Virus record (IMG/VR): IMGVR_UViG_3300042544_002482
Span: 1 to 64,000 of that record
DNA: 64,000 nucleotides
Reading direction: 5' to 3' (one strand)
DNA from: a virus
The notes beneath the pieces are model-generated. The model saw nothing but the letters and a program-made list of their open reading frames with translations. It searched no databases and was not told where the DNA came from. Shown piece by piece: positions 11,161-11,252 of this stretch (within the stretch, counting starts at the first letter, position 1; each line of letters starts with the position of its first letter). A program made the translations under genes and the position numbers.

Positions 11161-11252
11161 CGGGGAGAAAGGGATTCGGACCCTCGATTGACTTTTTTAG
11201 GTCCAATGACAACTTCGGAGGTTGCTGGTTTAGACCACTCACCCACCTCCCC
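11161..11252 (-). tRNA. type II tRNA with Ser-like body and anticodon CCG (nominally Arg)
   Basis: Acceptor GGGGAGG/TCTCCCC, discriminator G, D-arm GGT..ACC, anticodon stem GCAAC/GTTGT with loop CTCCGAA, 23-nt variable arm, T-arm GAGGG-TCCGAAT-CCCTT; no encoded CCA. Confidence 0.85.

Follow-up and report, generated by a model that had tools for sequence, protein, structure and literature searches.

The CCG-anticodon tRNA gene described here is encoded in the window, i.e. the whole stretch of 64,000 nucleotides of viral DNA that was analysed. The following observations show that it is an intact, selected and optional gene in a clade of roughly 335-kb T4-like freshwater phages. Its body is that of a serine tRNA and its anticodon is that of an arginine tRNA. 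In the phages that carry it, in-frame CGG codons are in excess in a module of fibre-like genes. The explanation that we tentatively prefer, and which we place somewhat short of an even chance, is that the tRNA is charged with serine and decodes the phage's CGG codons, so that arginine/serine mixtures would arise in the fibre-like proteins.

The tRNA gene, its ancestry and its conservation

The gene is located on the minus strand at positions 11161-11252. It encodes a type II tRNA, i.e. one with a long variable arm, which has a 7/5 cloverleaf, anticodon CCG and G73 and is without an encoded CCA. This assignment is based on ARAGORN, Rfam RF00005, covariation and syntenic copies in about 30 IMG/VR contigs. 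ARAGORN calls a tRNA-Arg(ccg) at 11160-11252 on the minus strand, the sole tRNA in the whole 93.6-kb record to which the window belongs, and the RF00005 score is 47.7 bits against a gathering score of 29. The acceptor stem has 7 bp (G1-C72, G2-C71, G3-C70, G4-C69, A5-U68, G6-C67 and G7.U66) and the discriminator is G73. The D stem consists of 3 bp (G10-C25, G11-C24 and U12-A23) plus G13.A22, and the D loop, AGUGGUCUA, has U, not A, on the 3' side of G18G19, as is the case in all variants of this tRNA. The anticodon (C34, C35 and G36; 11216-11218 on the minus strand, read from 11218 to 11216), identified both by ARAGORN and from the sequence itself, is positioned inside the 7-nt loop CUCCGAA, which is invariant. 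The variable region of the window copy is 23 nt long and has an A-rich loop and a stem of 5-6 bp, which is either AUUgGAC/GUCAAU with a bulged G or, in the ARAGORN drawing, 5 bp long. Among the variants the variable arm measures 21-23 nt, its stem is kept by covariation, and its layout is the same as in the serine tRNAs of a related phage, G002. The T stem is GAGGG/CCCUU and the T loop is UCCGAAU, so that position 55 is C. With its four stems, 7-bp acceptor stem, 5-bp T stem, 7-nt anticodon and T loops and a score above gathering, the molecule is a canonical 7/5 cloverleaf. The structural features listed in the first-pass annotation (the loop CUCCGAA, G1-C72, G2-C71, G73, the 3-bp D stem, U instead of A, the long variable arm and the T loop UCCGAAU) are all found in the ARAGORN drawing and by direct reading.

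The same annotation had described the body as serine-type and lacking A20, the bacterial ArgRS determinant, and this description is borne out by a census of D arms, by isotype models and by the likeness to a viral serine tRNA. The 19-nt D arm has 115 cellular matches, which comprise 108 serine, six tyrosine and one cysteine tRNAs and no arginine tRNA. Among viral tRNAs that share the D arm and have a non-C34 anticodon, 110 of 113 are serine tRNAs. Isotype HMMs were built, with the anticodon masked, from the tRNAs collected in this analysis (the arginine model from 47 sequences). The CCG tRNA scores 45-46 bits with the serine model, 12-16 bits with the tyrosine model and 12 bits with the cysteine model, and the arginine and leucine models give no alignment to it. 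When the tRNAs sharing its D arm are left out of the serine model, 35-36 bits remain. The nearest relative, a tRNA-Ser(GCU), is found on a different viral contig (L005, 6779-6869). The D arm and the anticodon stem of the two are identical, and their anticodon arms differ only at positions 34 and 36. The best cellular look-alikes are the Pelagibacter tRNA-Ser(GCU) genes, which agree at 68-70 of 92 positions. These likenesses show that the gene descends from a Ser(GCU)-type tRNA through two anticodon changes (G34C and U36G), after which G3-C70 and C55 were fixed. A Ser-CGA ancestor, as had been considered earlier, is rejected because the comparison with L005 identifies the ancestral type as Ser(GCU). 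An arginine tRNA as donor of the anticodon arm is rejected as well, since the stem of that arm matches the one in the Ser(GCU) of L005 exactly.

The bacterial serine identity set is composed of G73, C72, G2-C71, R4-Y69 and a large variable region and, in E. coli, also of C11-G24 and G30-C40 (PMC9976931, Table 1). In the CCG tRNA, the large variable region, with its stem flanked by single unpaired nucleotides, and G73, C72, G2-C71 and R4-Y69 are all present. These four elements are invariant in nine of the ten distinct variants (eight of the nine aligned); the L016 variant has G72, which breaks pair 1-72. C11-G24 is replaced by G11-C24, and the same D arm is found in 218 natural serine tRNAs. 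At 30-40, the window variant has an A-U pair and the common variant a G-C pair. The bacterial arginine set is composed of A20, which is the main determinant, C35, U/G36, A/G73 and C3-G70 (PMC9976931). The CCG tRNA has C35, G36 and G73 and lacks A20, C3-G70 and a class I body with its short variable loop. Natural tRNA-Ser(GCU) likewise has C35, U36 and G73 and yet escapes ArgRS, which suggests that the body of the CCG tRNA would be proof against ArgRS as well. G73 is also an antideterminant for LeuRS and TyrRS.

Serine-like D arms were also seen in combination with other anticodons. A viral contig (L248, 13710-13803, plus strand) encodes a serine-type tRNA with the same D arm, a long variable arm, G73, an encoded CCA and the anticodon GAG, which corresponds to the leucine codons CUC/CUU; this is a second mismatch between anticodon and identity in IMG/VR. 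Two viral tRNAs (L318, 2547-2633, minus strand; L353, 3638-3725, plus strand) combine the cysteine anticodon GCA with a serine-like D arm and a long variable arm. Cysteine tRNAs normally belong to class I. Among the loci L124-L243, 17 cellular tRNAs with the same serine D arm have, for the AGY box, the anticodon ACU, whose A34 looks unmodified; these include tRNAs from Patescibacteria MAGs (three were checked: L137, L201 and L238).

IMG/VR was scanned with an exact pattern and then with the upstream protein, which yielded 80 related loci. About 30 independent IMG/VR contigs, which come from many different samples, have the CCG tRNA in the syntenic position, with ten distinct sequences among them, so that the conservation in related genomes that had been looked for is indeed found. 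The reading of the anticodon, which a CGA in the relatives would have contradicted, is upheld, as they carry CCG and never CGA. In three close relatives the tRNA is 99-100% identical to the window copy, whereas the flanks of about 10 kb are only 87-89% identical. The window copy and the commonest variant differ by compensatory changes: pair 30-40 changes from A-U to G-C, pair 52-62 from G-C to A-U and pair 7-66 from G.U to G-C. In a covariation alignment of ten sequences (nine CCG variants and the tRNA-Ser(GCU) of L005), 96.8% of the cells are paired, nine pairs show double changes, and none of 500 shuffles is as good. The anticodon loop, the T loop including C55, G73, G3-C70 and the D arm are invariant among the CCG variants. 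C55 is rare (2-3 of 745 distinct tRNAs sampled, or under 0.5%), and so is the G3 of G3-C70 among serine tRNAs (4 of 182, or 2%). Their invariance across the variants means that both are fixed, derived and selected features and not signs of decay. The decay or assembly error that the T loop TCCGAAT had brought to mind is excluded by the occurrence of the gene in about 30 contigs from different samples, by the invariant C55 and by the greater conservation of the tRNA relative to its flanks. No tRNA resembling it was found in GenBank phages. Exact 31-mer scans found no cellular copy, and their metagenome matches were only the contigs already gathered. The rare T loop UCCGAAU, with C55, is also present in a type II tRNA of a 128-kb viral contig (L281, 764-851, plus strand), which has anticodon GCU, A1-U72 and A73.

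The locus and the phage genome

A promoter-like box (TTGATT-17 nt-TATATT, 9/12 matches, such matches being no commoner here than in shuffled sequence) is found at 11262-11290 on the minus strand and ends 10 nt before the 5' end of the tRNA. Relatives without the tRNA have the box too; in these, an alignment of the slot places it directly before the gene referred to here as gene C. As it is conserved without the tRNA, the box belongs to the transcript of genes C and D. Of the earlier proposal that the tRNA has its own promoter, the presence of a promoter-like box upstream therefore stands, but the tRNA is an insert in the leader of the C-D transcript and the box is not its own. Gene C (10245-11129, minus strand) starts 31 nt after the tRNA and encodes a 294-aa signal-peptide protein, for which no Pfam or PHROG family was found. 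Gene D (9250-10257, minus strand), which overlaps the end of gene C, encodes a DUF401/CitMHS-like membrane transporter (Pfam DUF401, E=6e-11; phrog_14035). Many relatives have neither the tRNA nor a remnant of it; their flanking genes are separated by 69 nt and not by about 170 nt. Alignment of these loci shows the tRNA to be a clean insert of about 100 nt between the -10 element of the promoter-like box and the 5' UTR of a two-gene transporter-like operon. The tRNA is probably transcribed as the leader of the C-D unit, and gene C is probably co-transcribed with it. In L009-L012 gene C is swapped for another gene and the tRNA stays.

The slot itself (11130-11290) is a hotspot of accessory inserts. 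It is occupied by the tRNA in about 30 contigs and by a 111-aa membrane ORF in three (L030, 7693-8028, plus strand; L045; L053), and it is empty (69 nt) in many. Upstream of the tRNA, two ORFs (11291-12983, minus strand), which share an overlap of 38 nt, jointly span phrog_1458, one matching its positions 1-295 and the other 297-519. Since the split is kept in all relatives that cover both ORFs, it represents a real two-gene or frameshift arrangement and not a broken gene. At 2567-2704 on the plus strand, a 72-aa stop-to-stop frame has a match to the central part of the T4 capsid family Gp23 (E=4.5e-9); the clade's real capsid gene lies far away.

The genome of the relative G002 is represented by 251 kb, which CheckV estimates to be 75% complete, implying a full length of about 335 kb. 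It contains a T4-type capsid gene, whose protein shares no more than 42% identity with its counterparts in cultured Microcystis, Flavobacterium and Rhodothermus phages. An array of tRNA genes (L087; G002:44000-52000), with 21 tRNAs according to ARAGORN and 22 Rfam matches, covers most amino acids and includes Ser(GCU), Ser(UGA), Arg(UCU) and Arg(ACG), the two arginine tRNAs both having A20. The array contains no reader of CGG and no UCG anticodon. The CCG tRNA of G002 stands alone, about 200 kb away from the array. No phage ArgRS or class-IIb (SerRS) synthetase core was found in the up to 75% of the genome covered. Several T arms in the array are far from the consensus, e.g. that of the phenylalanine tRNA, with the loop AGCGUAA.

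CGG codons in the fibre-like module

Codon usage was analysed in nine records that carry the tRNA and 12 that lack it, with ORFs called and orthologues aligned. CGG is rare in these phages, at 0.1-0.7 per 1000 codons. In the window's own record (G000), all 11 CGG codons are confined to two blocks, 15.5-25.6 kb and 49.9-71 kb, which hold 276 of the 930 arginine codons; the module was defined on this record, and so post hoc for it, and was afterwards tested on the others. Sub-module A (15542-25525, minus strand) is made up of phrog_1417 paralogues, the gene of an 1818-aa protein and neighbours, and has four in-frame CGG codons (16193-16195, 15584-15586, 23945-23947 and 25106-25108), the first two being codons 153 and 356 of the 369-aa protein encoded at 15542-16651. 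Sub-module B (49900-64000 in the window, minus strand, continuing to about 71 kb of the record) consists of fibre-like cassettes with tail-fibre and virion PHROG matches. It has five in-frame CGG codons in the window (50368-50370, 51829-51831, 52955-52957, 56228-56230 and 62631-62633) and two more beyond it.

An excess of CGG in the module is found in every record that carries the tRNA and has enough coverage and in no record that lacks it. Expressed as CGG codons per arginine codons, inside the module and in the rest of each tRNA-carrying record, the counts are 19/200 and 18/1560 in G001, 13/238 and 5/2219 in G002, 10/290 and 6/1411 in G003, 5/69 and 2/493 in G015, 5/69 and 4/585 in G017, 6/70 and 14/1024 in G018, and 7/83 and 6/1074 in G019. 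When pooled, the module has 76 CGG among 1329 arginine codons (5.7%) in the nine records with the tRNA and 5 among 1263 (0.4%) in the 12 records without it, an odds ratio of 15. Outside the module, the pooled counts are 58/9635 and 65/5961, respectively. Sub-module A has 45/713 in phages with the tRNA, 0/421 in tRNA-less phages of the close clade and 2/377 in those of the distant clade. For sub-module B the counts are 31/616 with the tRNA and 3/449 without it, the latter from the distant clade only, as there is no close tRNA-less comparator. The genome-wide frequencies are nearly equal (0.38 and 0.26 CGG per 1000 codons with and without the tRNA, respectively), and the effect becomes visible only when the genomes are split by module.

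The excess is confined to the reading frame. In the module, in-frame CGG occurs 4.11 times per 10 kb in phages with the tRNA and 0.25 times in those without it, whereas the out-of-frame values per 10 kb are equal (50.2/42.3 and 50.2/43.5). A DNA motif as the cause is rejected by this frame test, and a GC-content effect is rejected because CGC, CTG, CTC, CCC and CCG are evenly spread. CGG is altogether missing from the head gene region of G002, which makes ordinary high-expression codon bias an unlikely cause. Some of the CGG codons are found in the repeated fibre motifs KN-R-[VI]DS and NIA-R-LAT; duplication or gene conversion among the fibre paralogues may have spread these and inflated the counts. 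The tRNA is only 4 kb away from sub-module A, and linkage may contribute to the association. In a tree of 53 loci, the state of the tRNA changes only four times and CGG is concordant in three to four of the four independent pairs and discordant in none; with only about four independent contrasts, a sign test cannot reach significance. Given the coupling of module CGG with the presence of the tRNA, the CGG codons that the tRNA reads appear to be those of the phage itself. The earlier idea that the phage escapes harm by avoiding CGG is contradicted, for phages with the tRNA use CGG more in the fibre-like genes, at places where their relatives have arginine codons.

Among 94 aligned cells in which CGG is compared with homologues, arginine occurs 56 times, lysine 11 times, glutamine seven times and serine once, a profile that is the same as for CGA, CGT and AGG. 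At 25 CGG sites compared with the closest relatives without the tRNA (91 cells), AGA occurs 53 times, AGG 13 times and other arginine codons seven times, so that arginine accounts for 73 of 91 cells and serine for none. One recurrent CGG site is the invariant arginine of the motif NIA-R-LAT. As CGG stands where relatives have AGA or AGG, and as serine is found in one of 94 cells, and in none of the 91 against close relatives, homologue alignment gives no reassignment of CGG to serine.

Charging, decoding and known systems

By combining these observations, a possible course of events can be described. The CCG tRNA would be transcribed as the leader of the operon and matured by host RNase P and the CCA-adding enzyme. 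Host SerRS, to which the anticodon does not matter and which recognises a tRNA by the long variable arm, G73 and G1-C72/G2-C71, might then charge the CCG tRNA. The charged tRNA would compete with the host Arg-tRNA(CCG) for CGG, and the CGG sites of the fibre-like proteins would consequently be made as a mixture of arginine and serine, i.e. by programmed ambiguity and not by reassignment. A fixed serine would require only a change of AGA to AGY, and the use of CGG together with a CCG tRNA thus hints at a partial or conditional effect.

We give charging with serine nearly an even chance, consider charging with arginine rather unlikely, and leave the remainder to dual charging and to roles that are directed at the host or lie outside decoding. 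Serine is favoured because the structural features of serine tRNAs are present, A20 is absent and natural Ser(GCU) is not arginylated in spite of its C35 and U36. It is also favoured because one change in the phage Arg(ACG) could give a reader of CGG, and yet a serine body was used. Arginine, on the other hand, is favoured by the codons themselves, which arise from AGA/AGG, sit at arginine sites, one of them invariant, and are such that decoding as arginine would account for them most simply. The CCG tRNA might accordingly be a working arginine tRNA in a borrowed body, which host ArgRS charges through C35, G36 and G73 although A20 is missing and the arm is long. It would then either fill the CGG hole in the tRNA set of the phage, allowing CGG to spread synonymously, or gate the fibre genes in the manner of bldA. 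The alternation of CGG with AGA, AGG and CGT, the combination of Arg(ACG) and Arg(UCU) with no CGG reader in the G002 array, and the increase of CGG in genomes with the tRNA, where it is not purged, all agree with this possibility. So do the fixed G3-C70 and C55, which show that the body was remodelled after the anticodon change; these departures from the serine consensus might change charging. We nevertheless hold it to be unlikely. The main ArgRS determinant is absent and C3-G70 is unmatched (PMC9976931), while both phage arginine tRNAs retain A20; the arginine HMM has no match, and the serine-type architecture of the variable arm is conserved. Moreover, a 15-fold, module-specific rise against the AT bias, with head genes free of CGG, is not expected from neutral drift.

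In the proposal of the first-pass annotation, a serine-charged tRNA(CCG) corrupts newly made host proteins at CGG and the AT-rich phage is spared. The serine-type identity, the overall rarity of CGG in the phage and the toxicity of serine-identity allo-tRNAs in E. coli (PMC5389517) are in line with such a role. It is made very unlikely by the enrichment of CGG in the fibre-like genes of the tRNA-carrying phages themselves and by the dispensability of the gene, which is absent from many close relatives; besides, a host as AT-rich as the phage would offer few CGG codons. Equally improbable is a role outside decoding, with the tRNA signalling the processing of the downstream mRNA, acting as a regulator in uncharged form, or serving as decoy or substitute when a nuclease targets anticodon loops or T loops. 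The invariant anticodon loop, the unusual invariant C55 in the T loop, the position in an mRNA leader and the use of the slot by other accessory inserts, such as the membrane ORF of L030, would fit this role. However, compensatory changes have preserved the acceptor stem, G73 and all stems of the cloverleaf in the way of a chargeable tRNA, the in-frame-only enrichment of CGG points to decoding, and no nuclease or defence gene is linked to the CCG tRNA at this locus. To return to partial decoding as serine, a more far-reaching form of it appears doubtful to us: CGG at arginine positions of the fibre-like proteins, in genomes with the tRNA only, would constitute a private codon dialect, decoded partly as serine and yielding arginine and serine fibre variants from one gene. 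If true, the virus itself would encode a programmed ambiguity of decoding, through which adsorption could be broadened or the fibre module tied to the tRNA.

Several known tRNAs resemble the CCG tRNA in part. The allo-tRNAs of bacteria and phages, in which non-serine anticodons (the arginine anticodon GCG among them) are combined with serine identity in the form of a long variable arm and G73, insert serine in E. coli (Mukai et al. 2017; PMC5389517). The CCG tRNA shares with them the combination of serine-type identity with a non-serine anticodon. The 12-bp acceptor branch of allo-tRNAs, however, is split 8/4 or 9/3, whereas the CCG tRNA is 7/5 and so by definition not an allo-tRNA (PMC5389517); it is also carried by phages, and within one gene module its codon co-varies with it. 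The tRNA-Ser(CAG) of CTG-clade yeasts and Ascoidea, for which ambiguous or stochastic decoding is documented (PMC2246281, PMC6041473), is likewise a serine-type tRNA with a changed anticodon that reads a codon of another six-codon amino acid. It differs in being eukaryotic and chromosomal and in accompanying a genome-wide reassignment, in which CUG has gone from conserved leucine sites, whereas the CCG tRNA is an optional viral gene and CGG remains at arginine sites. The bacterial reassignments of CGG found with Codetta occur in low-GC genomes with very rare CGG, a dedicated tRNA(CCG) with a tryptophan- or glutamine-type body and no tRNA(UCG) (PMC8629427). The phage array similarly has ACG without UCG, and the dedicated tRNA(CCG) has a non-arginine body. 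In the Codetta cases, however, a tryptophan or glutamine tRNA underwent one anticodon change and the change of the cellular code is visible in alignments, while the phage tRNA is of serine type with two changes and the alignments show arginine. The tRNA-Ser(UCU) of animal mitochondria is also among the closest known cases (PMC4615739). The literature searched contains no canonical 7/5 serine-type tRNA with an arginine anticodon that is kept by a virus or co-varies with its codon in one functional gene set.

Two systems of Streptomyces offer further parallels. The mistranslating tRNA-ProX/ProA have alanine identity, are chromosomal and travel with a dedicated synthetase gene. In these naturally kept bacterial tRNAs, as in the CCG tRNA, anticodon and acceptor identity disagree, but no synthetase is linked to the phage tRNA. 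The bldA tRNA-Leu(UAA) carries its cognate amino acid and is the sole reader of its rare codon, which is confined to a functional gene set. The likeness lies in a rare codon confined to such a set and served by one dedicated tRNA; the phage tRNA differs in its mismatched identity, and the relatives without it still translate their few CGG codons.

tRNAs with a mismatch between anticodon and acceptor identity are already known from soil bacteria, yeasts and Streptomyces. What is new is the concentration of in-frame CGG in a fibre-like module only in those phages that carry the tRNA. The CCG tRNA can be regarded as a natural experiment in which C35/G36 of the anticodon and the body are set against each other as deciders of the amino acid. 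If serine is inserted, a virus would be seen here for the first time to render its surface proteins ambiguous on purpose.
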